DNA of 64,000 bases from Desulfuromonadales bacterium (lineage in GTDB: Bacteria; Desulfobacterota; Desulfuromonadia; Desulfuromonadales; JACZKF01), in assembly GCA_029289095.1 (NCBI GenBank), contig JARFUG010000003.1, forward strand, positions 25,479-89,478, in the 5' to 3' direction. The notes beneath the pieces were generated by a model. It saw only the letters and a program-made list of their open reading frames with translations. It was not told the origin of the DNA and made no database searches. The translations under genes were made by a program, and so were the position numbers. Position 1 is the first letter of the stretch; each line of letters opens with the position of its first letter. Shown here in pieces: positions 2,104 to 12,802 of this stretch.

Positions 2104-3303
2104 ATGAGTCTTCTCCAATCACCCTTCAACGCTAAAGGTAGGACAATGTCTCTTTCAACTCTCTGGGCCTGGTGCAAAAGACACCTTCTACTGGTAACGT
2201 TTCTCTCCATCGGCCTCATTTTTGTCTTCGCGGTCATCAACGTTCAGATTCTGCACATGACCTCAGAGCCTGAGTTCTGCGCCATGTGCCACCCCAACCA
2301 GGGGTACGGCCCGCTGGCCGAAGTCGATTCCTGGGCGCACTCGACCCATGCCGCCGCAGGCGTCTCTTGCCTGGACTGCCATGGCCGTCCCGGTCTGGCC
2401 GGCTACATGAGAGCCAAGATTGGCGGGCTCTACGATGTCTATATGCAGTTCACCCTTTCGGCTGAAGAGAAACTTGCCATTCTGTCCAATCCGTCGCCCG
2501 ACCTCGTTCCGGAAGACCACTGTCTCTACTGTCATTCCGATGAGCAGAACCTGGCGACCCGGCAGGCCACCCGCTTCATCGACCTCGTCAACATGCGCAT
2601 GCTCGACAGCGTGCAGAACCCCGAGTTCCGGGAGCGCAAAGGGATTCCTGATATTCTGGCCGGCCCCACCCGGGAGAACTCGCGCTTCGATCACACATTC
2701 CATATGGACACTTTCGAACTTTCGTGCAACGACTGTCACTTCGGTGTCGTGCACAACCCCCAGAGCAAAACCGACCTCATGAACATGTGCATCGCCTGTC
2801 ATGATGCATACGAAGGCTCGTCTGCTCCGCTTCTGAACGATTGCACCTCGTGCCATTCGGTCCAGAACTCGATGTACCTGGGCCAGGGCGCCCGCGGGGT
2901 TCCCGAGGAAGAGGGACTCAAGTCGATGTTCGGCATAAGCTGCGACATGTGTCACTCTTCGGTGTTCAAGGGCGTCTACCGTCCTTCGGCCGGCACCTGC
3001 ACCGATTGCCACGACTCGGGTTACAACGAAATTCTCGAGATGTGGCAGCAGGACACCCGAGAGCAGATCGCCAAACTTGACCGCCTTCGTCTTACCGTCG
3101 AAGACGCCCTGCGTGATGGTGATGCCCGCAACCGCGACAACACTGCTCGCTGGGAACTCTTCCAGAAGGCCGTCTACAATCTGAAACTGGTGAAGAAAGA
3201 TGGCGCGAAGGGAGCCCACAACGCCGACTACGCTTTGTCCATCCTTTCCTCGGTCGAGAAGGACTTCAACTTCATCCTCAACGACATCAGAATCAACTGG
3301 TAA
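2104..3303 (+). CDS. membrane-anchored octaheme c-type cytochrome (NapC/NirT-like N-terminus)
   Basis: Eight CXXCH motifs (CAMCH, CLDCH, CLYCH, CNDCH, CIACH, CTSCH, CDMCH, CTDCH) and one N-terminal TM helix. The alternative start at 2146 has the better SD. Confidence 0.8.
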   Translation: MSLLQSPFNAKGRTMSLSTLWAWCKRHLLLVTFLSIGLIFVFAVINVQILHMTSEPEFCAMCHPNQGYGPLAEVDSWAHSTHAAAGVSCLDCHGRPGLAGYMRAKIGGLYDVYMQFTLSAEEKLAILSNPSPDLVPEDHCLYCHSDEQNLATRQATRFIDLVNMRMLDSVQNPEFRERKGIPDILAGPTRENSRFDHTFHMDTFELSCNDCHFGVVHNPQSKTDLMNMCIACHDAYEGSSAPLLNDCTSCHSVQNSMYLGQGARGVPEEEGLKSMFGISCDMCHSSVFKGVYRPSAGTCTDCHDSGYNEILEMWQQDTREQIAKLDRLRLTVEDALRDGDARNRDNTARWELFQKAVYNLKLVKKDGAKGAHNADYALSILSSVEKDFNFILNDIRINW

Positions 3304-3327
3304 CCGGATCGCACAAAAGCCGAAAAA

Positions 3328-3356
3328 GGCGCCCTCTCGAGGGCGCCTTTTGTTTT
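3328..3356. terminator. bidirectional intrinsic terminator between the cytochrome gene and the convergent peptide array
   Basis: ggcgccc-tctcga-gggcgcc hairpin flanked by an A-run (3323-3327) and a T-run (ttttgtttt). Confidence 0.6.
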
Positions 3357-3402
3357 GTGGCAGGAAACTCCGCAACGATGGCTCTTTGGGACCGCAACCG
3401 GC

Positions 3403-3546
3403 TCAGCCGACCCGGGAAGCCAGGAAGGCCAGCGCCGGGTAGGAGATCAGCACTGCCGTGCACACCGAAATGACCCCGGTCACGACCAGCACGCCTGCGA
3501 GATAACCTGCTTTCACTTTTTCACGAATCGCAACGACGTTTCCCAT
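3403..3546 (-). CDS. small hydrophobic peptide, 47 aa, copy 1 of 5: MGNVVAIREKVKAGYLAGVLVVTGVISVCTAVLISYPALAFLASRVG
   Basis: Hand translation of the minus strand. ATG at 3546 is preceded by GGAGGAGATC; stop is at 3405-3403. Paralogous to four other mini-ORFs in the window. Confidence 0.7.
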   Translation of the reverse strand: MGNVVAIREKVKAGYLAGVLVVTGVISVCTAVLISYPALAFLASRVG

Positions 3547-3618
3547 GATCTCCTCCGTTATCTAGTAAAGCCGGATCGCTCCGGATCGCCTTTTGACTTA
3601 GTCTCGTGTCCCGCGCTC

Positions 3619-3762
3619 TCAGCCGACCCGCGAAGCCAGGAAGGCCAGAGCCGGGTAGGAGATCAGCACCGCCGTGAACACCGAAATGACTCCGGTGACG
3701 ACCAGTACGCCTGCGAGATAACCTGCTTTCACCTTTTCACGAATGCTGACGACGTTTTCCAT
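3619..3762 (-). CDS. small hydrophobic peptide, 47 aa, copy 2: MENVVSIREKVKAGYLAGVLVVTGVISVFTAVLISYPALAFLASRVG
   Basis: Hand translation; SD GGAGGAGATC precedes the ATG. The gene lies exactly 216 bp from copy 1. Most nucleotide differences from copy 1 are synonymous. Confidence 0.7.
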   Translation of the reverse strand: MENVVSIREKVKAGYLAGVLVVTGVISVFTAVLISYPALAFLASRVG

Positions 3763-3834
3763 GATCTCCTCCGTTATCTGTAAAGCCGGATCGCTCCGGA
3801 TCGTCTTTTTGACTTTGCCTCGAACCCCGCGCCC

Positions 3835-3981
3835 TCAGCCGACCCTGGAAGCCAGGAACGCCAGCGCCGGGTAGGAGATCAGCACCGCCGTGAACACCGA
3901 AATGACTCCGGTGACGACCAGCAATGCAGCCAGATATCCTGATTTCGCCTTTTGACCGATTTTCCCGATAGTTGTTTCCAT
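3835..3981 (-). CDS. small hydrophobic peptide, 48 aa, copy 3: METTIGKIGQKAKSGYLAALLVVTGVISVFTAVLISYPALAFLASRVG
   Basis: This is the C-terminal part of track ORF 3835..4092. The internal ATG at 3981 is preceded by AAGGAGGAAATC. It is the first gene downstream of the sigma-54 promoter. Confidence 0.7.
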   Translation of the reverse strand: METTIGKIGQKAKSGYLAALLVVTGVISVFTAVLISYPALAFLASRVG

Positions 3982-4074
3982 GATTTCCTCCTTTGACTTG
4001 GCGCCTCCGCGGAAGGCGACTTTCTGATATTTTTTCGGTCGACTCTGGCGACCGTGCTTACTTGCCTTACTAAA

Positions 4075-4092
4075 TAGCAACCGCCGTGCCAA
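4075..4092 (-). promoter_or_regulatory. sigma-54 (-24/-12) promoter of the three-peptide array
   Basis: Minus strand reads TTGGCACGGCGGTTGCTA, matching the TGGCAC-N5-TTGCW consensus with correct spacing. It lies about 95 nt upstream of the copy-3 ATG. Confidence 0.8.
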
Positions 4093-4162
4093 TATGATTT
4101 TTCATGCCAAAACGAATACTTACGGCCTACTCACATCCTGGAGAGGCGATTCCAACTAAAAG

Positions 4163-4489
4163 TGTTCAATTCCCGGCATGAAGAAATTCAAGAAAATAAC
4201 CTGCCCTCTGCGACAATCCTTCTCACACCAGAGATGATGTCGTGCTGTCCGCCCCCGAATATGCACTTATCTGGCGTTGCAATGACCTTTTGACTGAGAT
4301 GTCGGCAGAGGCGATGACGTTGCAGGAGGGAATAAGCCCGTTTGGGATGTGTTCAGAATACGGCATGTGGAAAGTGGGACGCCAGATGGTGTTCACTCTA
4401 CTTGCTTGAAATACTGTCGTTTTCTCTTGTTCAAAATCCGACGTGGTGCGCTTGTTTCTTTTTATGGCAACTGTTGCGCACGTTGCAAT
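4163..4489 (-). promoter_or_regulatory. upstream activating region: three 16-mers of form TGTTCA-N-CCGRCR (TGT-N10-RCR) plus GTTGCA motifs and a GCAACTGTTGCGCACGTTGCAAT element
   Basis: 16-mers at 4163-4178, 4350-4365 and 4428-4443; CGTTGCA at 4275, 4318 and 4481. The same motifs occur at the same distances upstream of the second sigma-54 promoter (10073-10401). Confidence 0.55.
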
Positions 4490-4711
4490 TAATGCACTGG
4501 GACTCTCCTCCCAGCTCAGAGGAAAACCGGACGGTCGTTCCCCTGCCTCGCCCCGATGGCGCTCCTGTAAATTGCCATCCACTCTCCCTTGAATTCCTCA
4601 CTTCGCGGCAGCAATAAACCCCGGGAGAATGCATCCGTTCCGTCGGCGCGTTCTCCCGGGGTTTTGATAAAGCCACACCCGAATCCCCTCAAATGAGGGG
4701 ATTCGACTTTT

Positions 4712-4987
4712 TCAGGATCGGGCTGTAACGCCCGCCTTCCTGCGCGCTCTGACCATGTGAATTCCGTGGCGATTGCGGAAAATGCGCATCACCATAACGC
4801 CCATGATAGAGAGAAAGAAACCGATGCAAAGAACAACATATCCGATGCTCCTCCCATCTCCCAGCCCAGCGACGTCTTTTCCTGAGAGAAGGGCGATCAT
4901 CGCAATGGCGCCGAAGGTCACCACGCCCCCGAGCACGTAAATGCCGAGAGCCGAAATCCCCAAGAACATATCCTTATCTATTTTCAT
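4712..4987 (-). CDS. small membrane protein (two or three predicted TM helices), function unknown
   Basis: 91-aa ORF with SD GGAGA 7 nt upstream. It sits directly downstream of the CbcL-like gene on the same strand. The hairpin gaatcccctc-aaat-gaggggattc (4681-4704) follows it. Confidence 0.55.
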   Translation of the reverse strand: MKIDKDMFLGISALGIYVLGGVVTFGAIAMIALLSGKDVAGLGDGRSIGYVVLCIGFFLSIMGVMVMRIFRNRHGIHMVRARRKAGVTARS

Positions 4988-5045
4988 CGTTGTGTCTCCG
5001 CAGACTAAGGTGAGGGGGGAGCCCCGTGAGGCTCCCCCTTCTGAA

Positions 5046-7028
5046 TCAGCCTTTGACGAAAGCGTAGAGCATCAAAAACGCCAGCGTCACGCCGGTGAAG
5101 AAAGCCAGGAAGCCGAAGCCCTTGAAGAAAAAGTCATAGAGAACCCCGCTCGTTTTCTTGGCTTCGAACTGCTCCAGGATCCCGAGCTCCTCGTAGCGCT
5201 TCCACTGGTCTCCGCGCTCATGGATGAACTCTTCCTTGGAAATCTGGCCGTTGAAGATGACAAAGTCCATCGGGAACTTCTCGGGCCGACCGTGGGTGTT
5301 GAAGAAGTGGACAGTAAAGATGAATCCGGTGGCGAGCAGCGCCTCGTCCGAATGGACGATGGTGGCGACGTTGAACATCCACCCGGGCAGGAAGAGGGCG
5401 AAGAATTCAGGGAACCAAAGGAGCAGACCGGAGCCGCCGATGGCGAACATCCCCCAGAAGACCGCCAGGAAGTCGAACTTCTCCCAGTAGGTCCAGCGCT
5501 CGAAGGTCGGTTTGGGCCCCTTGAAGAAGAACCACTTCACCATGCCGGTGACGTCCTTTACGTCGCGGGTGTTGGGGAGCAGCGAATCTGGACCGAAAAG
5601 ACGCTGCAGCCAGTGGGCCTTTGTCCCGTTGCGATTATAGACGTCCTTGCGGATGAACAGGAAGTCGAAGCTCATGATGAGAGCGCCGAGGAAGTAGTAG
5701 AAGGTCAGGATGGCGCAGCCGCGATGGATGAGACCGGCCAGGTGCACCCCGCCAAAGAAGTTCATCATGTTCACCGCCCAGGCCTGATCGGCGAACTTGA
5801 GCGGAAGCCCGGTCAGCGAAAGGCCGAGGAAGCTGATGATGACGACGAGGTGGAGATAGATGTGGCGTTTCTCAAACCGCAGATATTGCTTCTGAGGATC
5901 GGAGATGGCGTGGGCATGACTCCCTGCGGCTGCGCCTCCGTGCATCCTCTCTCCGGCCGAGACCGTCACGGCGACCGATGCCGACATGCCGTCGGCGACC
6001 GCCTCCGCTTCCTCGGTGTCCGAATCGTGCGCTCCCGAATGGGCATGGGAGCCCATGGCGGCTTGCTTCTCGCGGTTCTCGACGAAGCCGCGGAACATCC
6101 ACAGCAGGGTGTGGACCCAGAAAACGGCAAACGTCACCACCAGCAGAGAGGTCATGCTGATGTAAGTCCAATACAGGATCGGAAACTTGGCGCGGTCGTG
6201 ATGATCGCCGTGGGGGTGAAAGAGCACGAAGAGCGAATTCGCATTGGGATGGCACTGGGCGCAGGTCGCCACGAGATTGTCGGGATTGATGCTCGACATG
6301 GCGTGGTCACGCGGCAGCACGCTGTGGGCGGTGTGGCAGTCGGAGCATCCGGCCGTATCTTCCGGGAAACCGAGGCGGTAACCTTTGCCGTGATAATTGT
6401 CGAGGTACGTCTTGACGGTGAGCGCCGAAAGCCCCGCACGGCTCATCATCTCCTCATCGCCGTGGCAGGTCATGCAGGCGCTGGTGTGGAAAGCCATCTT
6501 CTGCCGATCGTCTCCCAGGGGATTGATCTGATGCAGACCGTGACAGTCGTGACAGGCCGCCGAATCGGGGTTGCCGTCGAGCACAGAGCGTCCGTGAATC
6601 GACTCGAGATATTCGGGGTGGTCGTGGCAGCCGAGGCACGAGTCGACAGCCACTTCCTTTTTACCCCCCCAGGACTTCAGGGCATGAATGTCGTAATGGC
6701 AGTCTTTGCAGCCTATGCCGCTGAGCATATGGATACTGGATCCATGCTCGGCGGTCTGCTCCTTGTGGCAGCGGGTGCAGTTGACCGGCTCGACCCTTAC
6801 GATTCCGTCCATGTGTCCGTCGAGATCGGTGACCTGCGTGTGGCAGCTTGTGCACGAGTTGTGCCCGTGGACGGACATGCCGAAAGCGGATGCGTCAATA
6901 TCTCCCTGGTGGCAGTCCATGCAGCTTTCCGCGGCGGGCGGCAGAGCTGCGGGAGACGGTGATGGTGCAGCCAGAATCCAGCAGAACAGCAAAATCGGGA
7001 TCAGTCGATAGAACCTCATTGGCTTCAT
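5046..7028 (-). CDS. CbcL-like inner-membrane cytochrome: periplasmic nine-heme c domain fused to a HydC/FdnI-type b-cytochrome membrane domain
   Basis: Signal peptide, then nine CXXCH motifs in aa 36-260, then a polytopic membrane domain in the C-terminal roughly 370 aa. This architecture matches the published description of Geobacter CbcL. The ATG at 7019 has better SD spacing. Confidence 0.75.
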   Translation of the reverse strand: MKPMRFYRLIPILLFCWILAAPSPSPAALPPAAESCMDCHQGDIDASAFGMSVHGHNSCTSCHTQVTDLDGHMDGIVRVEPVNCTRCHKEQTAEHGSSIHMLSGIGCKDCHYDIHALKSWGGKKEVAVDSCLGCHDHPEYLESIHGRSVLDGNPDSAACHDCHGLHQINPLGDDRQKMAFHTSACMTCHGDEEMMSRAGLSALTVKTYLDNYHGKGYRLGFPEDTAGCSDCHTAHSVLPRDHAMSSINPDNLVATCAQCHPNANSLFVLFHPHGDHHDRAKFPILYWTYISMTSLLVVTFAVFWVHTLLWMFRGFVENREKQAAMGSHAHSGAHDSDTEEAEAVADGMSASVAVTVSAGERMHGGAAAGSHAHAISDPQKQYLRFEKRHIYLHLVVIISFLGLSLTGLPLKFADQAWAVNMMNFFGGVHLAGLIHRGCAILTFYYFLGALIMSFDFLFIRKDVYNRNGTKAHWLQRLFGPDSLLPNTRDVKDVTGMVKWFFFKGPKPTFERWTYWEKFDFLAVFWGMFAIGGSGLLLWFPEFFALFLPGWMFNVATIVHSDEALLATGFIFTVHFFNTHGRPEKFPMDFVIFNGQISKEEFIHERGDQWKRYEELGILEQFEAKKTSGVLYDFFFKGFGFLAFFTGVTLAFLMLYAFVKG

Positions 7029-7060
7029 CCTCCGGTAAGAGTTGATAAAATCGATCCGCC

Positions 7061-7726
7061 TCAGCTTCGCAACAAAATATCGAGTGCCTTCTTCTTTTCG
7101 GGGTTATTGAACCGGAACACCATCTCCTTCAAATAGAGGGGAAACTCATCTCGAAAACTCCCCCGGTAACGGCGCAGATGCCTGCGGGCGAACTCCCAGA
7201 ACTCCGCAGCGACGCGCAGTTCCCCTTCCGAACCGTGAGGGAGATGTTTCTGCAGAACTCGACTGAGAAAATTCTCCTTTGCTCCATATTGAGCGCCTAG
7301 CACCAGAGTCGAGCAGCACGCATGTGGAACGCCTGAGCCCCCCCTCTCGGGAAAGGCGACCCACACCGTTCGATCATTGACGCCGATCCCGCACAGGAGA
7401 TTCATCGGCTCCGACATCGGACAACCTTCACTTTGCACCTCCCTCAGATGCGTTGCGTTTTGGAGCCCATCATTTTCCAGGGCCATTTTGACTCTGAATT
7501 CCCTATAGATGCGCTGAACCGTCTTGCGGTTGATACCGGCGAGATCCGCTGCTCTGTATGCGGAACCGAGATCCCAGAATAGTTGGGCGACGGCTTCTCT
7601 GGTGGCTTCGGACAGCCTTCCCTGCCTCGGATGGGGTGTGAACTTCTGTCTGCACTTGCGACACTGGCGGCGGCCGTCCGCCAGCAGATAAGAATCTGCA
7701 TCACAGGCCGGGCATCGATCCATCAT
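7061..7726 (-). CDS. IS1595-family transposase-like protein (zinc ribbon + HTH + shortened DDE region), probably degenerate or domesticated
   Basis: N-terminal CPACDADSYLLADGRRQCRKCRQKF zinc ribbon and a C-terminal YLKEMVFRFNN motif typical of ISXO2/IS1595 transposases. At 221 aa it is short, and I found no flanking inverted repeats. Confidence 0.5.
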   Translation of the reverse strand: MMDRCPACDADSYLLADGRRQCRKCRQKFTPHPRQGRLSEATREAVAQLFWDLGSAYRAADLAGINRKTVQRIYREFRVKMALENDGLQNATHLREVQSEGCPMSEPMNLLCGIGVNDRTVWVAFPERGGSGVPHACCSTLVLGAQYGAKENFLSRVLQKHLPHGSEGELRVAAEFWEFARRHLRRYRGSFRDEFPLYLKEMVFRFNNPEKKKALDILLRS

Positions 7727-8011
7727 GTGGCGCCATCCTCCCGTTGGTCCTATTTAATGGCCTGATCGAAAATTCCACACAAAAAAAGGCCAAAGTTTTT
7801 TCCCTTTGTGCACTTTGACCGCCGGGGATTTCTCAGCCGCTAAATTATGCCGCTCCGTCTCGAGGGCAGAACCGGGGACAGGACATTAGATTACTTTTAT
7901 TTAACCCTGTCAACCTTTTCTCCTGCATAGAAAAACTCTCCTTTCCGTCTCAGTTCAGATGCCGGGCCAATCCCGGTCATCAGGGAAATATTCCGGAGGA
8001 TTGATCACTCC

Positions 8012-9406
8012 TCAGCACAGTTCGTGCCGCTTCATCCAACGCCACAAGGTTGTACGGTCTACACCGAGAATTCCCGCCACCTCAGTACGGTTTCCTCCGT
8101 GCCGATGGAGCAGTTCGTTGAGGTCCTGGGCAGAAACCGTTTTTCGCCTCGACCGTGAAAGGACGGGAGTTGGAACGCTCTTTGGCGACAACGTGGTGGG
8201 CAGATGCTCGATGTCAATTTCAGCGCCGCGACATAGAATGACCGTCTGCTCGATGATATTCAGCAGCTCCCGAACGTTTCCCGGGTATTCGTAATCGAGA
8301 AGGATCTGGAGCGCCTGAGCGGAGAGACCCCTGATATTTTTACCGTAGGCGCGGTTCAACCGATCGAGAAAGACCTCGATGAGCAGGGGGATGTCTTCCG
8401 GCCTCTGACGCAGGGGGGGGATCTGAAGAGCGACTACATTGATCCTGAAAAAAAGATCACGGCGGAAGGTTCCCGCATTCACCTTGGCCCTAAGGTCACA
8501 GTTGGTCGCAGCGACAAAGCGGACATTGGCCTTTTGCACCCTTTCTGCGCCGAGGGGCTGAAATTCCTGGTGCTCAATCACCCGCATCAGCTTGACTTGA
8601 AGGGATAATGGAAGCTCACCGACTTCGTCGAGGAAGAGGGTTCCCCCTTCGGCGAGTTCGATGCGTCCCTGGCGATCGGTCCGATTACCGTAACCTCCCT
8701 TGCGCGAGCCGAAAAATTCGACTTCGAGCAGATGCTCCGGGAGCTCTCCGCAATTCACGACGACCATCGGCCCGGCACTTCGCGAACTGAGCTCGTGAAT
8801 CGCCTTGACGATGAGCTCCTTGCCGGTGCCGCTCTCGCCGGAGACCAGAACCGTGGCATCGCTGCGAGCAACATCTGGCAGAGCGTCGAAGAGCCGATGC
8901 ATGGCGGGATTGCGGCTGACGAGATTTCGGAAGGTGTACTTCTCGGCGACCCGCACGGAGGCGGAGCACAGTTCGGAGCGATCACGGAACGCCTCGACGC
9001 CGCCGATGGGATGTCCTTGCAGGTCGCGCAGGACGGAAGCGCTCACCGAAACCGGTACTTTGCGGTTCTCCTTGTTGCGGATTTCGAACTCGCGGTTAAC
9101 GACCCCGATGTTTGTTTTTCTGGCTTCTCGCACTGGGCAGCTCTCTGAGCAGATATTGGAGCGGAAAATTTCATAACACGGCTTTCCGACCACCTCCGCC
9201 CTGGTAAATCCGGTGATCTCTTCGGCAGCGCGGTTGAACGACGTGATGCGCATGCGGTCATCGACGGTGAAAACGCCGTCTGCTACGCAGTTGAGAATGG
9301 CGCCGGTGAGAACGCTGGAGTTGCCGAACAGGTGGACAGCCGGGGCGCTCCTGCGTGAGATCTCCAAATTAGCTGAACTCTGGTACCTGCCTCGCTCGCT
9401 GCTCAT
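8012..9406 (-). CDS. PAS-domain sigma-54-type enhancer-binding protein (AAA+ domain + C-terminal Fis-type HTH) with a non-canonical GAFTGA loop
   Basis: Walker A GESGTGKE, GGTLFLDEVGEL, and the GNVRELLN motif are present. The C-terminal HTH reads RTEVAGILGVDRTTLWRWMKR. The PAS domain carries CYEIFRSNICSESC. The L1 loop reads KGGYGNR instead of KGAFTGA. Confidence 0.85.
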   Translation of the reverse strand: MSSERGRYQSSANLEISRRSAPAVHLFGNSSVLTGAILNCVADGVFTVDDRMRITSFNRAAEEITGFTRAEVVGKPCYEIFRSNICSESCPVREARKTNIGVVNREFEIRNKENRKVPVSVSASVLRDLQGHPIGGVEAFRDRSELCSASVRVAEKYTFRNLVSRNPAMHRLFDALPDVARSDATVLVSGESGTGKELIVKAIHELSSRSAGPMVVVNCGELPEHLLEVEFFGSRKGGYGNRTDRQGRIELAEGGTLFLDEVGELPLSLQVKLMRVIEHQEFQPLGAERVQKANVRFVAATNCDLRAKVNAGTFRRDLFFRINVVALQIPPLRQRPEDIPLLIEVFLDRLNRAYGKNIRGLSAQALQILLDYEYPGNVRELLNIIEQTVILCRGAEIDIEHLPTTLSPKSVPTPVLSRSRRKTVSAQDLNELLHRHGGNRTEVAGILGVDRTTLWRWMKRHELC

Positions 9407-9518
9407 CGGACACCTCTCGTCGGGGACGGACGCTAATGCTCCCCTAGGACACCCTCAACCCGGCACTCTGCACTTTCGCATCGGGGGATTTTTCGACTCC
9501 GATCTTCCTGGGACTGGC

Positions 9519-9665
9519 TCAGCCGACCTTGGCTGCGAAGAAAGCCAGGGCGGGGTAGGAGATCAGCACCGCCGTAACCCCGGACATGACGCCGGCCAGA
9601 ACCAGCACTGCGACCAGGAAACCTGCCTTCATTTTTTCGCGGAAGAAATTGCCGATGGTTTCCAT
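9519..9665 (-). CDS. small hydrophobic peptide, 48 aa, copy 4: METIGNFFREKMKAGFLVAVLVLAGVMSGVTAVLISYPALAFFAAKVG
   Basis: Hand translation; SD GGAGGAGAAT precedes the ATG at 9665. It lies 113 nt upstream of the bEBP gene on the same strand. Confidence 0.7.
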   Translation of the reverse strand: METIGNFFREKMKAGFLVAVLVLAGVMSGVTAVLISYPALAFFAAKVG

Positions 9666-9743
9666 ATTCTCCTCCACCTTCTCTTGCAGTACAGCACGAC
9701 CAATCCACTGATCCAGCCCGCCAGCAACCTTTCTCGTCAGCCC

Positions 9744-9890
9744 TCAGCCGACCCTGGAAGCCAGAAAAGCCAGCGCGGGGTAGGAAATCAGAACAGCCGT
9801 AACCACGGACATGACGCCGGTGACGACCAGCAATGCGACGAGATAGCCCGATTTCGCTTTTTGTCCAATTTTCTCGATGGTTGTTTCCAT
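9744..9890 (-). CDS. small hydrophobic peptide, 48 aa, copy 5: METTIEKIGQKAKSGYLVALLVVTGVMSVVTAVLISYPALAFLASRVG
   Basis: Hand translation; SD AAGGAGGAAAGTC precedes the ATG at 9890. It is the first gene after the second sigma-54 promoter. Confidence 0.7.
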   Translation of the reverse strand: METTIEKIGQKAKSGYLVALLVVTGVMSVVTAVLISYPALAFLASRVG

Positions 9891-9985
9891 GACTTTCCTC
9901 CTTTGACTTGGCGCCTCCGCGCGGGAGGCGTCTTCTTATAATCTTTCGGCCCTCTCAAGAGACCGTGCTTGCTTGCCTAACTTAA

Positions 9986-10003
9986 TAGCAACCGGCGTGC
10001 CAA
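9986..10003 (-). promoter_or_regulatory. sigma-54 (-24/-12) promoter of the two-peptide array (and possibly the downstream bEBP gene)
   Basis: Minus strand reads TTGGCACGCCGGTTGCTA. The downstream leader (aggcaag.aagcacggtc) is also shared with the 4075 promoter. Confidence 0.8.
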
Positions 10004-10072
10004 ATAAATAGTCACGCGCAAACAGCCACTTAGGTGGCTTGTCCGTCCCATGGAGTCGATTCCGGCGAAAAG

Positions 10073-10401
10073 TGTTCAATTCCCGACGGAAAAAAAAGAA
10101 ATCGAACGGCCGGACCTGCGGCAACCTTCCGCCCCGCAGCAGAGGTAAGGACGAACTGTCCGGCCGCGAACGCCCGTTGGTCGTGGCATGCATTGTTTTT
10201 CCCTGCGTGGGTGAAGAGGCGATTGACGTTGCACGGAGTGGATGCGTCCGCCTGAAATGTGTTCAGAATCCGGCAGGGCAAAATGGAGACGATCAACCAG
10301 AAAGATTACTATCTGATTGATTATTGGTTCTTTTCCCTTGTTCAATATCCGACGCATCGCGTTCTGTTTCCCTTCAGGGCAACTGTTGCGAGCGTTGCAA
10401 T
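10073..10401 (-). promoter_or_regulatory. upstream activating region paralogous to 4163-4489
   Basis: 16-mers at 10073-10088, 10260-10275 and 10339-10354; CGTTGCA at 10227 and 10393; GGCAACTGTTGCGAGCGTTGCAAT at 10378-10401. Distances to the -12 element match locus A within 1-2 bp. Confidence 0.55.
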
Positions 10402-10658
10402 CGAGTTACCAGACCTCAGGCTGTTGCACCTCGTCAGGGCATTCTGCAACAGACCAGATATCTGTCGCTGCCGATTCTCTTTGAAATTGCAGCAGTGAAT
10501 TCCACCTACGTCTTCTGTATCCTGATTCCGACTATTCGAGGCGTACACAAAAAGTGAAAAAATTTTTCCTTTTTTCCGGCTACTCCCTTTGGTATCATTA
10601 ATTTCTGTAACTCACTTAAAGCTGGGGCAATTTCACCCCCGTACGCAGGAGAGTTTCA

Positions 10659-11117
10659 ATGGCGGTTTCCAGCAGCGACCCCATCTTTCCCATCAGCGTG
10701 GCTGCAAAACTCCTCGGAGTTCATCCCCGGACGATCCGCATCTACGAAGACGAAGGCCTGATCAAACCTTCACGTCGAGGCCAGAAAAGATACTTTTCCC
10801 AGGACGACATCCAGTGGATTCAATGCATCAGATATCTCATCCATGAAGAGGGAGTCAGCATTCCCGGCATCAAGAAGCTCCTCAAGCTCAGCCCATGCTG
10901 GGAGATCAAGGTCTGTCCGCCAGAGATTCGCGAAAATTGTTCCGCTTATGTCGACAGAAGCGGGTCGTCACAAAAACCGTGCTGGGAAGTCGCGAATCGG
11001 GCCTGCGCCAAAGACTTCGATCAGTGCGCAACTTGCGATGTTTTCGTGCAGGCGATGAAGGAGAGTCAGTCGTTGCAGGAACGGAGAGAAAAAGAGCCGA
11101 AGATTGGCGCAGACTGA
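10659..11117 (+). CDS. MerR-family transcriptional regulator with C-terminal Cys-rich two-CW-type domain
   Basis: N-terminal MerR HTH (ISVAAKLLGVHPRTIRIYEDEGLIKPSRR). The C-terminus carries PCWEIKVC..C..PCWEVANRAC..CATC, i.e. 8 Cys and two CW dyads. Confidence 0.8.
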   Translation: MAVSSSDPIFPISVAAKLLGVHPRTIRIYEDEGLIKPSRRGQKRYFSQDDIQWIQCIRYLIHEEGVSIPGIKKLLKLSPCWEIKVCPPEIRENCSAYVDRSGSSQKPCWEVANRACAKDFDQCATCDVFVQAMKESQSLQERREKEPKIGAD

Positions 11118-11338: not shown

Positions 11339-12802
11339 GTGAAGGAAGTCGCCAATATTATCAATGCATTCTTCAGAGGAATCACTCACAGCAAGGTCTC
11401 TCTGATCGGGGCGATGGTCGTCACAGTCGTCTTCCCCTTTCTCGTCGGCGCGATCATCTATGACATCTATTTTCACATCGAGAACACCTATTTCGCCGGC
11501 TTCATCTACATGCTTCTCGGCCCTGTGTTTCTCGGAGGACTTCTTCTTGTCTTTCTCGGCCTGTTCTTTTTCAAAGGCAAGGAGGAGGTCAGGCTTTTCA
11601 CCCTCGAATATCTCCAGGACTATTTCACCGATCCGACGAAGTTCTCCAGGCTCCGTCGGATCTTGTTCTTCACAGTCTTTCTCACTTGCGTCAACCTATT
11701 CATTTTCGGCGTCCTCGCCTACAGGGGATACCATTACATGGAGTCGACCGGATTTTGCGGCACTTTCTGCCATACGGTGATGAATCCCGAATACACCGCA
11801 TATCAGAATTCTCCGCACTCCAGGGTGACCTGTGTCGAATGCCACATCGGAGGAGGCGCCGAATGGTTCGTCAAGTCGAAGATCTCCGGAGCCCGCCAGC
11901 TTCTCGCCGTGGCCTTCGACACGCACCCGCGCCCCATAGAGACTCCCGTCCATGGTCTGCGTCCCGCCCGGGACACGTGTCAGCAGTGCCACCGTCCGGA
12001 GAAATTCCATGGAAACCGGCTCGTCATCAAGGAGAGATTTCTTCCGGATGAGCACAACACCAAAACCTTTACCGCCCTGCTGATGAAGATCGGTTCGGCA
12101 GGCGACCACACCACGGGATCTCATGGGATTCACTGGCATGTGGCGCCGGAAAACGAAATCACCTACCAGCACGCAGACTACGGCCGCCAAATTATCCCCA
12201 TCGTGACGATGACCGGAGCCAGCGGCGGAGAGCGTATCTTTCTGAGTTCTGACGCCGACGAAGTCATGGCCGAAGCTGCCGCACGCGGAGGCGGCGTTCG
12301 GGTGATGGACTGCATCGACTGCCACAACCGCCCCTCCCACATTTTCCTGTCGCCGGACCAGGCGATCGACCGCAAGATGCTGGAGGGGGAGATCCCCAAA
12401 GAACTTCCCTTCATCAAGCGCCAAGCCCTGGCGGCGGCAACCCAGCTCTACACCTCGAGTCAGCAGGCCCGCACCGCCATCGCCACGCAATTGCACGACT
12501 GGTACCAGACCAACTACCCGGACCTGGTCAAAAAAGGCTTGGTTGAAAAGGCGATCCGCGGGGTTCAGGCCGCCTATGCTGAAAACGTCTTCCCCGAGAT
12601 GAACATTCAGTGGAACACCTACGTCGACCACATCGCCCACACCCCTGATTTCGATCCGATGATCGGCTGCATCCGCTGCCACAACGATGAGCATGAAACC
12701 GTCACGGGGGAAGTCATTTCCATGGACTGCGATTTGTGCCACACGGTATTGGTCGAAAATGTCAAGGAGATGAACATTCCTGAAATGCTTCGTGGCAGGT
12801 AG
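11339..12802 (+). CDS. membrane-anchored multiheme c-type cytochrome, NapC/NirT-related (ImcH-like architecture)
   Basis: GTG start 8 nt after GGAGG. Three N-terminal TM helices. Five CXXCH motifs (CVECH, CQQCH, CIDCH, CIRCH, CDLCH) plus one CX3CH (CGTFCH). Confidence 0.8.
   Translation: MKEVANIINAFFRGITHSKVSLIGAMVVTVVFPFLVGAIIYDIYFHIENTYFAGFIYMLLGPVFLGGLLLVFLGLFFFKGKEEVRLFTLEYLQDYFTDPTKFSRLRRILFFTVFLTCVNLFIFGVLAYRGYHYMESTGFCGTFCHTVMNPEYTAYQNSPHSRVTCVECHIGGGAEWFVKSKISGARQLLAVAFDTHPRPIETPVHGLRPARDTCQQCHRPEKFHGNRLVIKERFLPDEHNTKTFTALLMKIGSAGDHTTGSHGIHWHVAPENEITYQHADYGRQIIPIVTMTGASGGERIFLSSDADEVMAEAAARGGGVRVMDCIDCHNRPSHIFLSPDQAIDRKMLEGEIPKELPFIKRQALAAATQLYTSSQQARTAIATQLHDWYQTNYPDLVKKGLVEKAIRGVQAAYAENVFPEMNIQWNTYVDHIAHTPDFDPMIGCIRCHNDEHETVTGEVISMDCDLCHTVLVENVKEMNIPEMLRGR

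Follow-up and report, generated by a model that had tools for sequence, protein, structure and literature searches.

Within the window, by which we mean the whole 64,000-nucleotide stretch of Desulfuromonadales contig JARFUG010000003.1 analysed here, five small genes on the minus strand encode micro-proteins of 47 or 48 residues. They lie in two groups, array A with copies 1 to 3 and array B with copies 4 and 5. The first-pass annotation of this DNA had spoken of five peptides, and the two minus-strand paralogues at 9744-9890 and 9519-9665 are indeed real.

3403-3546, minus strand: beta-type micro-protein gene copy 1, a 47-aa ORF (MGNVVAIREKVKAGYL...SYPALAFLASRVG) with a GGAGGAG Shine-Dalgarno, matching the family HMM
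3619-3762, minus strand: beta-type micro-protein gene copy 2, a 47-aa ORF matching the family HMM
3835-3981, minus strand: alpha-type micro-protein gene copy 3, 48 aa from the ATG at 3981 (METTIGKIGQKAKSGYL...), with the alpha signature K-S-G-Y-L
9744-9890, minus strand: alpha-type micro-protein gene copy 4, 48 aa
9519-9665, minus strand: beta-like (type 3) micro-protein gene copy 5, 48 aa from the ATG at 9665
3547-3618 and 3763-3834, minus strand: the two 72-nt spacers of array A, flanking copy 2, each with a Shine-Dalgarno at its end

The stops of copies 1 to 3 are spaced by exactly 216 bp, as had been noticed before, and Tandem Repeats Finder gives array A a period of 216 with 2.6 copies, 89% matches and a score of 883. 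The description of the array as an exact triplication holds for this period but not for the genes, which run alpha, beta, beta, with copy 3 a distinct conserved subtype; array A has a single alpha-type gene and, after it, a beta-type gene that was duplicated recently. The two spacers are about 90% identical besides two compensating 1-nt indels, both of which are hidden by their equal 72-nt length. Copy 3 has a diverged 5' third, and its last 88 nt differ from those of copy 2 at four sites; over the last 96 nt it differs at 9 sites from copy 2 and at 13 from copy 4. The sequences lend mild support to gene conversion within array A. All three genes of the array carry the strong Shine-Dalgarno that had been reported before each ATG (GGAGGAGATC-ATG twice and AAGGAGGAAATC-ATG once), and their peptides have the C-terminus TAVLISYPALAFLASRVG in common. 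A GC hairpin just 5' of the Shine-Dalgarno shows compensatory changes in three of seven pairs, from four sequences only, which is too little for a claim.

Copies 1 and 2 differ at 13 coding positions and not at the 11 first counted, eight of them being synonymous single-base changes, as stated at the time, and the other five falling in three altered codons. By the Nei-Gojobori method this amounts to 8.7 synonymous and 4.3 non-synonymous differences, with three amino-acid changes and a dN/dS of 0.18. The closest paralogue of copy 3 is copy 4 (dN/dS 0.06, dS 0.62), and copy 5 has its orthologue in the final gene of a MAG array (dN/dS 0.20). The dN/dS ratio lies between 0.06 and 0.36 in 16 of 18 paralogue and orthologue pairs; one of the remaining two is a near-identical pair whose 0.56 comes from 5 differences, and the other has no non-synonymous change. 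Third codon positions take 11157 of 15479 substitutions (72%), a Shine-Dalgarno core precedes 146 of 163 family genes, and the ATG with its Shine-Dalgarno and the 47-48-codon length are kept across 124 distinct family proteins. The low dN/dS and the third-position bias bear out the earlier proposal that selection acts on the peptide rather than on a DNA repeat; on this substitution pattern, the five genes are protein-coding and under purifying selection.

The family had not been recognised in the first-pass annotation, and profile searches of the five peptides and 27 diverse members against curated families found no characterised family: nothing scored above threshold in Pfam, NCBIfam, PHROGs or PADLOC, the best sub-threshold matches being YohP (9.9 bits, cut-off 58) and DUF5964 (14.9, cut-off 25). 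The best match in a profile search of the PDB was ATP synthase subunit c (E = 0.4), and no family relative was found in a scan of viral contigs. The family nevertheless extends far beyond what could be seen from the window, since a profile search recovered 850 or more clusters at 90% identity, every one of them labelled hypothetical. At 50% identity, 27 representatives were obtained. The matches from two profile searches were all metagenomic or MAG proteins, with no Geobacter-named member among them, and a genome scan for relatives returned one MAG. The literature held nothing specific on this micro-protein family or on small proteins adjoining imcH or cbcL.

Family members typically do not occur alone: at least two copies are found in 60 of 98 sources, mostly 190-230 bp apart. 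When paired genes are compared across loci, identity is 0.71 between genes in the same position and 0.56 between genes in different positions, the same-position match wins in 777 of 903 locus comparisons, and nine alignment columns are specific to the alpha or the beta subtype. These comparisons identify the ordered alpha-then-beta pair as the ancestral and basic unit of the family, which the window genome, on the same evidence, has expanded to alpha-beta-beta in array A plus alpha-beta' in array B.

Each protein is predicted to form one long helix, a kink at the invariant [Y/W]-P and a short C-terminal helix. For copy 2, AlphaFold2 (pLDDT 86) places helices at residues 2-34 and 36-46 with a break at residue 35, just before Y-P. 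In the family, the best 19-residue hydrophobic window falls at residues 16-35 (mean Kyte-Doolittle 2.6-3.0). With fewer than 60 residues and a single predicted transmembrane helix, the proteins have the size of a small subunit. About 25 nearly invariant consecutive residues form the contiguous conserved block LGVFAFISAVLIAWPALAYLGAKLFN, and conservation runs all around the helix, not along one face. The conserved positions include a G-x2-[AS]-x2-[ST] / W-P-A-L-A-Y block. The positive-inside signal is weak (+1 to +2 in the N-flank, +1 in the C-flank), and a conserved His is seen in no column of the alignment of 124 sequences. Modelled by AlphaFold2, a natural read-through fusion that joins alpha to beta by a linker (P0031) shows two helices, with a pLDDT of 73 and a pTM of 0.32; this model is uninformative on native packing.

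Both arrays are preceded by conserved, putatively regulatory elements, and array A ends in a predicted terminator.

4076-4091, minus strand: sigma-54-type -24/-12 element TGGCACGGCGGTTGCT, a motif match upstream of array A
9987-10002, minus strand: sigma-54-type -24/-12 element TGGCACGCCGGTTGCT, a motif match upstream of array B
4163-4477, minus strand: conserved upstream islands of array A, with three CGGRWTYTGAACA repeats (4163-4175, 4350-4362, 4428-4440) and the palindrome GCAACAGTTGC (4467-4477)
10073-10389, minus strand: conserved upstream islands of array B, with repeats at 10073-10085, 10260-10272 and 10339-10351 and the palindrome at 10379-10389
3320-3351, both strands: bidirectional intrinsic-terminator hairpin with a 12-bp stem and a T-run on either strand, closing array A and the convergent NapC-like gene
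8012-9406, minus strand: PAS / AAA+ (sigma-54-interaction-type) / HTH_8 regulator, from Pfam domains, 112 nt downstream of copy 5

The 64-kb window contains two perfect matches to the sigma-54-type element (-24 GG / -12 GC, TGGCAC-N5-TTGC), both of them upstream of the arrays. In three lineages whose flanks are 58% identical, TGGCACG-N4-TTGCTAT does not vary at any base, and the element lies about 95 nt before the ATG in arrays A and B and 119 nt before it in loci L002 and L005. The upstream islands of the two arrays are colinear, with an offset of 5910-5912 bp, and six of the seven window matches to the CGGRWTYTGAACA repeat fall in the two upstream regions, where chance would give 0.78. The earlier description of the genes as sigma-54-driven is thus supported by a conserved -24/-12 element, but this element is clade-specific, being absent from all family lineages outside the window's clade, and the adjacent activator-like gene lacks GAFTGA; sigma-70-like promoters of the form TTGACA-N16-18-TAnnnT are present in 14 loci of other lineages. 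Between copy 5 and the gene of the PAS-AAA+-HTH_8 regulator, whose PAS domain has three cysteines, the minus strand has no predicted terminator. We considered this regulator as the cognate sigma-54 activator and rejected it, because its GAFTGA position is degenerate and non-conserved (GGYGNR in the window, GPDGDG in L002, GPYSGG in L005). With G[AS][FY]TGA found in no window ORF of at least 250 aa, the activator of the arrays must, judging by this motif, be encoded elsewhere. The combination of small membrane proteins with a sigma-54 promoter and enhancer-like sites ahead of it recalls the Psp genes (pspABCDE and pspG); there is no homology between the two, and PspF has GAFTGA whereas the AAA+ regulator of the window has a PAS domain and lacks this motif.

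The arrays are interspersed with genes for multihaem cytochromes and associated proteins.

2104-3303, plus strand: NapC/NirT-type 8-haem cytochrome (Pfam Cytochrom_NNT), convergent with array A
4712-4987, minus strand: 91-aa membrane protein with apparently two hydrophobic segments and no Pfam match, directly downstream of the CbcL-like gene
5046-7028, minus strand: CbcL-like fusion of 660 aa with nine CXXCH haem-c motifs and a C-terminal multi-helix membrane domain
7061-7726, minus strand: 221-aa zinc-ribbon/HTH protein, conserved between the regulator and the CbcL-like gene
11339-12802, plus strand: ImcH-like cytochrome of 487 aa with a NapC/NirT-like region (weak Cytochrom_NNT match), 5 CXXCH and, by eye, three N-terminal hydrophobic segments

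Published descriptions give ImcH roughly three transmembrane helices at the N-terminus, 5-9 CXXCH and a NapC/NirT-like region, and CbcL nine CXXCH and a C-terminal dihaem-b-type membrane domain (PMC6295460; 10.1101/2023.05.03.539133). In these features the 487-aa and 660-aa proteins match the descriptions and may be counterparts of ImcH and CbcL (GSU3259 and GSU0274). The peptide genes do lie beside genes for quinol-oxidising cytochromes, as was first noted for the window, and the linkage recurs in distant relatives. Metal-respiring bacteria use such cytochromes to take electrons out of the quinone pool. NapC-like orthologues converge on the peptide genes at a distance of 90-190 bp in L002, L003, L005, L019, L024 and L059, divergent ImcH-like orthologues (58-63% identity) lie 200-500 bp upstream of them in many loci, and CbcL-like orthologues (57-86% identity) adjoin family members in L002, L012, L014, L019, L024 and L102. 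In L102, a very divergent family member is located 106 nt downstream of a co-directional CbcL-like gene whose product is 58% identical to that of the window and has a faint Ni_hydr_CYTB match. The 91-aa membrane protein occupies the same position in L002, L019 and L024, and a 68% identical orthologue of the zinc-ribbon/HTH protein keeps its own place in L002. Among 47 loci of 4 kb or more, 23 have ImcH-, NapC-, CbcL- or NrfD-like genes adjoining the peptides; many of the loci come from related lineages and are non-independent. These cytochrome-linked loci have at least four different arrangements, mostly convergent or divergent, and co-directional only in array B of the window and in L102. To judge from this gene order, the peptide genes have stayed within an ImcH/NapC/CbcL/NrfD island through several rearrangements.

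The other 24 of the 47 loci show no ImcH-, NapC-, CbcL- or NrfD-like neighbour within reach. Among the genes found in them are PagL/AsmA, fatty-acid oxidation genes with OmpA, V-type ATPase, Usp, rubrerythrin and RNase E/G, with no single neighbour shared across these loci. The initial suggestion that the micro-proteins are accessory subunits or modulators of membrane complexes thus gains from the recurrence of the cytochrome linkage, but since about half of the longer loci lack such a neighbour, a dedicated cytochrome subunit is not established.

The explanation that we tentatively prefer, at somewhat less than an even chance of being correct, is that alpha and beta are single-helix inner-membrane proteins that are abundant, pack together and serve as a non-catalytic partner of an ImcH-/NapC-/CbcL-like menaquinol-oxidising module. 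Each would be inserted in the inner membrane by one membrane-spanning helix, with the N-terminus probably cytoplasmic and the C-terminus outside, as the weak positive-inside signal suggests. The two would form hetero-oligomers, because the paralogues are kept in a fixed order and their roughly 25 consecutive conserved residues are not confined to one helix face, and gene amplification, Shine-Dalgarno sequences and promoters all point to production in large amounts. The micro-proteins may then act with quinol:cytochrome c oxidoreductases, for example by stabilizing or tuning them, or the surrounding membrane, in some redox or energy state. Two observations run counter to a partnership of this kind: in most loci the peptides form a transcription unit of their own, converging with or diverging from the cytochrome genes, and gene dosage is amplified and not 1:1. 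In both respects they are unlike CydX-type subunits.

CydX/AppX of cytochrome bd, CcoQ of the cbb3 oxidase and PetG/L/M/N of cytochrome b6f are single-helix proteins of fewer than 60 residues that have no cofactor ligands. The window proteins resemble them in size, in having one helix and no cofactor ligands, and in having genes near those of quinol-oxidising membrane complexes, but the family shows no sequence similarity to them, is usually a separate transcription unit, is amplified, comes as an alpha/beta pair and in half of its loci lacks a cytochrome neighbour. The light-harvesting alpha/beta proteins (pufBA, multicopy pucBA) are encoded by ordered pairs of genes of about 50 codons, sometimes amplified and highly expressed, and assemble into hetero-oligomeric rings. 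Here the likeness lies in ordered, retained and sometimes amplified single-helix pairs, and offers an analogy for mechanism, not membership, as the window family has no conserved His or other pigment ligand and no sequence similarity to them, and its hosts are non-phototrophic.

A parallel in operon layout comes from the same bacterial order. In G. sulfurreducens, a sigma-54-dependent promoter heads the cbcBA operon, followed by two small hypothetical proteins, a regulator and a bc-cytochrome, and the operon is among the most highly expressed loci of this organism at low redox potential (10.1101/2021.04.15.440034; PMC7726332; PMC13591261); one of the small proteins, GSU3489, is a predicted inner-membrane protein (10.1101/2021.04.15.440034; PMC7726332). 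Array B has the same order as this Cbc5/CbcEDCBA locus: sigma-54 promoter, two small proteins, regulator and bc-type menaquinol-oxidising cytochrome. The likeness to CbcE/CbcD (GSU0597/GSU3489) is one of layout and predicted localisation, the window cytochrome is a CbcL-type fusion rather than CbcA plus CbcB, and a cbcBA-type neighbour occurs in none of about 100 family loci. Of all steps in extracellular electron transfer, the oxidation of quinol at the inner membrane by ImcH, CbcL and CbcBA is understood least, and the way in which a cell settles on one of these branches when redox potential shifts is still an open question. The present work defines a large and strongly conserved small-protein family that annotation had missed, an ordered alpha/beta pair recurrent in a quinol-oxidising island. 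It provides new candidates for accessory or regulatory parts of the extracellular electron transfer pathway and suggests a fresh look at the two ignored small genes that head the BccR-controlled cbcBA operon of Geobacter.

A somewhat less probable explanation, but one to be taken seriously, is that the family is a general, cytochrome-independent membrane micro-protein with a role in membrane integrity, ion leak/proton-motive force or lipid/quinone organisation, which in Desulfuromonadales is merely co-located and co-regulated with a respiratory island. Canonical alpha/beta pairs of nearly the same sequence also adjoin unrelated genes, divergent single-copy members repeatedly face universal stress protein genes in convergent orientation, in one case with rubrerythrin upstream, and YtxH adjoins the array in L002 and L009. 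Promoters of their own (sigma-70-like in the 14 loci mentioned above) and a terminator of their own fit such a role, and a self-assembling oligomer would be in keeping with the conservation on all sides of the helix. What speaks against it is that the ImcH/NapC/CbcL linkage has persisted through several rearrangements and across the family's deepest split, L102 included, and that no one stress-related neighbour is common across lineages. Even if the function proved to be general membrane homeostasis, a family of at least 850 clusters with about 25 nearly invariant residues would merit a curated model.

A more far-reaching possibility, which we regard as doubtful, would have alpha and beta assemble into an abundant hetero-oligomeric ring or bundle in the inner membrane that sets the energy conserved during extracellular electron transfer. 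Such a structure might gate or tune ImcH-/CbcL-type menaquinol oxidases with redox potential, or provide a regulated ion leak, and would be a missing component of the Desulfuromonadales switch between high-yield and low-yield respiratory branches.

Type I toxins such as Ldr, Ibs, Hok and TisB are small hydrophobic peptides that are sometimes encoded in tandem multiple copies, and the arrangement of the arrays resembles that of Ldr, Ibs and Hok. It is nonetheless very unlikely that the micro-proteins are toxic or pore-forming, whether as type I toxins, holin-like proteins or bacteriocins in multicopy arrays. Their Shine-Dalgarno sequences are strong and unpaired in minimum-free-energy folds, and the RNAs of both spacers and both 5'UTRs fold no better than shuffled sequence (z-scores -0.9 to +1.3). 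Enhancer-type or strong sigma-70 promoters and the absence of any sign of an RNA antitoxin also set them apart, as do alpha and beta subtypes held under strong purifying selection across hundreds of lineages. There is no GG-leader, no immunity, ABC-exporter or lysis genes were found among recurrent or Pfam-annotated neighbours, and the PHROGs, PADLOC and viral-contig searches described above yielded no match. Where the first-pass annotation had offered stress or toxin-like peptides as a possibility, the toxin part is without support.

The same annotation had seen neither a cleavage site nor a GG-leader in the peptides. The alignment agrees on the leader, but the C-terminus contains a formal A-x-A motif (W/Y-P-A-L-A followed by F/Y), so that the absence of a signal-peptide cleavage site is not strictly true. 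One could imagine a precursor whose hydrophobic segment serves for export and which signal peptidase cuts after P-A-L-A, setting free a C-terminal peptide of 7-8 residues (FLASRVG or YLGSKLFN) that signals from the periplasm: A-L-A behind an invariant Pro agrees with the -3/-1 rule, and the tail beyond it is conserved. We consider this highly improbable, as the hydrophobic segment, at 20 residues or more, is the most conserved part of the protein, unlike in signal peptides, and the AlphaFold2 helix continues through the putative cleavage site.

Finally, the notion of a non-coding DNA or RNA repeat with accidental ORFs, to which an often open antisense frame might seem to point, is effectively refuted by the substitution pattern, with its sense-frame third-position bias and a dN/dS well under 1. 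Against it are also the retention of start, Shine-Dalgarno and length across the 124 proteins, the lack of significant RNA folding and an Rfam scan of positions 3200-10700 that gave sub-threshold chance matches only. The plus-strand ORF at 3355-3783 is an antisense shadow of array A, as previously supposed, and the codon-complementary frame is closed in copy 3. Of 132 family coding sequences, 97 have this frame open, simply because TTA, CTA and TCA codons are avoided.

Our analysis confirmed and widened the observation that a hydrophobic peptide of 47-48 aa is encoded three times on the minus strand at 3403-3981. The stops of these three mini-genes (array A) lie exactly 216 bp apart, in agreement with the repeat reported by Tandem Repeats Finder (period 216 bp, 2.6 copies, 89% matches, score 883), and each ATG is directly preceded by a Shine-Dalgarno sequence, GGAGGAGATC or AAGGAGGAAATC, as the first-pass annotation had stated. 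Its mention of five peptides also proved sound, since tblastn of the window gives two further minus-strand paralogues (array B). The features of this cytochrome island are as follows.

2104-3303, plus: 8-haem NapC/NirT-type cytochrome, converging on array A
3320-3351: terminator after array A
3403-3546, minus: copy 1, 47-aa ORF
3619-3762, minus: copy 2, 47-aa ORF
3835-3981, minus: copy 3, 48-aa ORF counted from the ATG at 3981
4076-4091, minus: sigma-54 element of array A, upstream of alpha, beta, beta (3981-3403)
4712-4987, minus: 91-aa membrane protein, directly downstream of the CbcL-like gene
5046-7028, minus: 9-haem CbcL-like fusion, after the zinc-ribbon/HTH gene
7061-7726, minus: 221-aa zinc-ribbon/HTH protein, between the regulator and the CbcL-like gene
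8012-9406, minus: PAS-AAA+-HTH_8 regulator, next after copy 5
9519-9665, minus: copy 5, paralogue from tblastn
9744-9890, minus: copy 4, paralogue from tblastn
9987-10002, minus: sigma-54 element of array B, upstream of copy 4, then copy 5
10659-11117, plus: MerR-family regulator, upstream of array B

An ImcH-like cytochrome gene also lies upstream of array B.

The family members code for protein. In 16 of 18 paralogue and orthologue pairs the Nei-Gojobori dN/dS lies between 0.06 and 0.36, the other two being a near-identical pair whose value of 0.56 comes from five differences and a pair without non-synonymous change; window and MAG orthologues give 0.09-0.22, and copies 3 and 4 differ with a dS of 0.62 and a dN of 0.04. 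Over 668 pairs of close relatives, all of 48 codons, third codon positions hold 11157 of 15479 differences (first, 2852; second, 1470), which bears out the proposal that selection acts on the peptide. That proposal came from copies 1 and 2, where the eight synonymous single-base changes counted earlier stand but the total is 13 coding differences, not 11, the other five falling within three changed codons; the 72-nt spacers are equal in length yet hold two compensating 1-nt indels. Exactly 48 aa is the length of 79 of 124 distinct family proteins, and a Shine-Dalgarno core precedes 146 of 163 family genes. Rfam gave no match, and the predicted folding of the spacers and 5'UTRs does not exceed that of shuffled sequence and leaves the Shine-Dalgarno unpaired. 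The plus-strand ORF 3355-3783 is indeed an antisense shadow: family coding sequences avoid TTA, CTA and TCA codons, which leaves the codon-complementary frame open in 97 of the 132 compared; in copy 3 this frame is interrupted. A GC-rich hairpin directly 5' of the Shine-Dalgarno (3982-4020 and 9891-9932, minus strand, with equivalents in loci L002, a related MAG, and L005) has compensatory changes in three of seven pairs, too few sequences to judge, and looks terminator-like when read on the plus strand.

With one peptide as query, a word-indexed search found four proteins only; an exhaustive HMM search gave 27 representatives at 50% identity and a profile search at least 850 clusters at 90% identity. 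All are labelled "hypothetical", none has a Pfam domain, and members with a named organism belong to Desulfuromonadales or "Deltaproteobacteria" MAGs. The family had not been recognised from the sequence, and Pfam, NCBIfam, PDB, PHROGs, PADLOC and viral contigs hold no match to it; it is new to the curated databases and the literature searched.

The family HMM was run on six-frame ORFs from about 100 collected loci. Tandem genes, at least two and typically 190-230 bp apart, occur in 60 of 98 sources, and the first and second genes of a pair are distinct conserved subtypes, alpha (MKTQSRFMDNVKSSYLV...AWPALAYIGSKLFN) then beta (MKTAANIVNNVKASYTV...AWPALAYLGAKMFN), with nine subtype-specific columns. 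Between loci, identity averages 0.71 for same-position versus 0.56 for cross-position genes and is higher for the former in 777 of 903 comparisons, which are not independent, many loci being related, although sub-clades taken separately show the same pattern. The alpha signature K-S-G-Y-L is found in window copies 3 and 4, and the beta-like K-A-G-Y/F-L in copies 1, 2 and 5. The 216-bp period thus remains, but the supposed triplication is really alpha-beta-beta with a recent duplication of beta. The related MAG has one array, alpha-beta-beta-beta' (L002, 10001-10768, four copies), and its near-identical strain variant three copies (L003, 2500-3061), so copy number varies, probably by unequal exchange. 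Another near-identical pair has three intact copies (L014, 8001-8552) versus one intact copy and two fragments (L015, 7530-8023); such differences are consistent with unequal crossing-over or decay. In P0031, a 119-aa protein from an ENA contig, an alpha copy, spacer and beta copy form a single read-through ORF, a natural or artefactual fusion.

Conservation peaks across about 25 consecutive residues (LGVFAFISAVLIAWPALAYLGAKLFN), in which G, A, L, P and A hardly vary; the family alignment has no conserved His, Cys or Met. AlphaFold2 (99-sequence alignment, pLDDT 86) predicts a helix at residues 2-34, a break at [S/A]-[Y/W]-P and a helix at 36-46. The top hydrophobic window spans residues 16-35, and the flank charges (N-terminus +1 to +2, C-terminus +1) weakly favour an N-in/C-out topology. 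Conservation on all helix faces, together with the obligate-looking pair, suggests hetero-oligomeric packing of alpha and beta. The earlier statement that there is no signal-peptide cleavage site needs qualifying: P-A-L-A before Y or F has the form of a signal-peptidase site, but the length and high conservation of the hydrophobic segment argue for a signal anchor rather than a cleaved signal.

The description of the genes as sigma-54-driven fits the promoter elements of both window arrays but not the whole family. The -24/-12-type element TGGCACG-N4-TTGCTAT occurs only twice in the 64 kb, each time some 95 nt before the first ATG of an array, and is invariant in three lineages whose flanks are merely 58% identical. 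It is limited to a clade that also has the adjacent PAS-AAA+-HTH regulator; in other lineages the promoters are sigma-70-like (TTGACA) and lie in AT-rich DNA. The regions upstream of the two arrays run colinear (4163-4477 versus 10073-10389, minus strand, offset 5910-5912 bp), each with three CGGRWTYTGAACA repeats, which make up six of the seven matches in the window (0.78 expected by chance), and one GCAACAGTTGC palindrome; repeats and palindrome are kept as islands in L002 and L005. The spurious plus-strand ORFs 4349-4492 and 10259-10498 both begin MFRIR, since ATG-TTC-AGA-AT comes from the reverse complement of the conserved repeat, and in L009 an annotated 71-aa product overlaps the corresponding region.

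We rejected the PAS-AAA+-HTH_8 regulator as the sigma-54 activator, the defining GAFTGA loop being absent: the position reads GGYGNR in the window and is not conserved in its orthologues (GPDGDG in L002, 12239-13624; GPYSGG in L005, 3492-4676), and no window ORF of 250 aa or more bears GAFTGA. It therefore resembles EBP relatives without GAFTGA, such as TyrR and DhaR, and could act as a repressor or co-regulator. Its PAS domain, with three conserved cysteines (C-x8-C-x3-C), is a candidate sensor of redox state or of metals. Copy 5 and the regulator have no predicted minus-strand terminator between them, so transcription from array B could continue into the regulator and CbcL-like genes. The MerR-family regulator resembles HspR at its N-terminus, with a score (74 bits) that stays under the cut-off of 105, and is rich in cysteine in its C-terminal half; L005 and L009 likewise have it next to their peptide genes. 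The zinc-ribbon/HTH protein, which weakly resembles IS1 and IS1595 transposases and is kept in the same position in L002 (68% identity), may be a domesticated transposase-like regulator.

The proposed association with quinol-oxidising cytochromes is confirmed and has persisted through rearrangements within Desulfuromonadales, but is not universal. Homologues of the cytochrome-island genes directly adjoin the peptides in 23 of the 47 loci that span 4 kb or more, in several arrangements: a divergent ImcH-like gene, alpha-beta and a convergent NrfD/FeS/cytochrome complex; a divergent ImcH-like gene, alpha and convergent NapC-like, 91-aa and CbcL-like genes (L019); and the layout of the L002 MAG. 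A very divergent member lies 106 nt 3' of, and co-directional with, a CbcL-like gene whose product is 58% identical to that of the window. The likeliest reading, which we hold tentatively, is an alpha/beta micro-protein, abundant in the inner membrane, that would act alongside a quinol-oxidising respiratory module as a kind of small accessory membrane protein. In function it would recall CydX, CcoQ and PetG/L/M/N, single-helix subunits of quinol oxidoreductases, and in organisation the light-harvesting alpha/beta pairs, although it shares neither sequence similarity nor ligand residues with either. The nearest described arrangement, by gene layout rather than sequence comparison, is the G. sulfurreducens cbcBA (Cbc5/"CbcEDCBA") operon, strongly induced at low redox potential, which combines a sigma-54-dependent promoter, the small hypothetical proteins GSU0597 and GSU3489 (the latter predicted inner-membrane), a regulator and a bc-cytochrome (10.1101/2021.04.15.440034; PMC7726332; PMC13591261); a cbcBA-type neighbour occurs at none of the roughly 100 family loci. 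The 91-aa membrane protein, a candidate second small partner, also lies directly 3' of CbcL-like genes in L002 (16627-16902), L019 (5324-5554) and L024 (5790-6122), and has no Pfam match.

The main rival, a role in membrane homeostasis or energetics that does not depend on cytochromes, is somewhat less probable; the linkage at 23 loci speaks for the respiratory reading, while the other 24 of the 47 lack a multihaem gene and share no neighbour, their surroundings including PagL/AsmA, beta-oxidation genes with OmpA, FMN-reductase with V-ATPase, RNase E/G and rubrerythrin. The suggestion of a toxin-like peptide finds no support, every feature of a toxin, bacteriocin or holin that could be tested being absent. 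A convergent Usp gene recurs in a divergent "W-type" subgroup: the members in L098, L099, L100 and L101 are single-copy, have longer N-termini and face a convergent universal stress protein gene just downstream, and L100 has a rubrerythrin gene upstream. An encapsulin (Linocin_M18) and hemerythrin pair lies 3-6 kb from the peptide genes in L010 (4174-5546) and L016 (13908-15286), two loci without cytochromes that are otherwise unlike each other.
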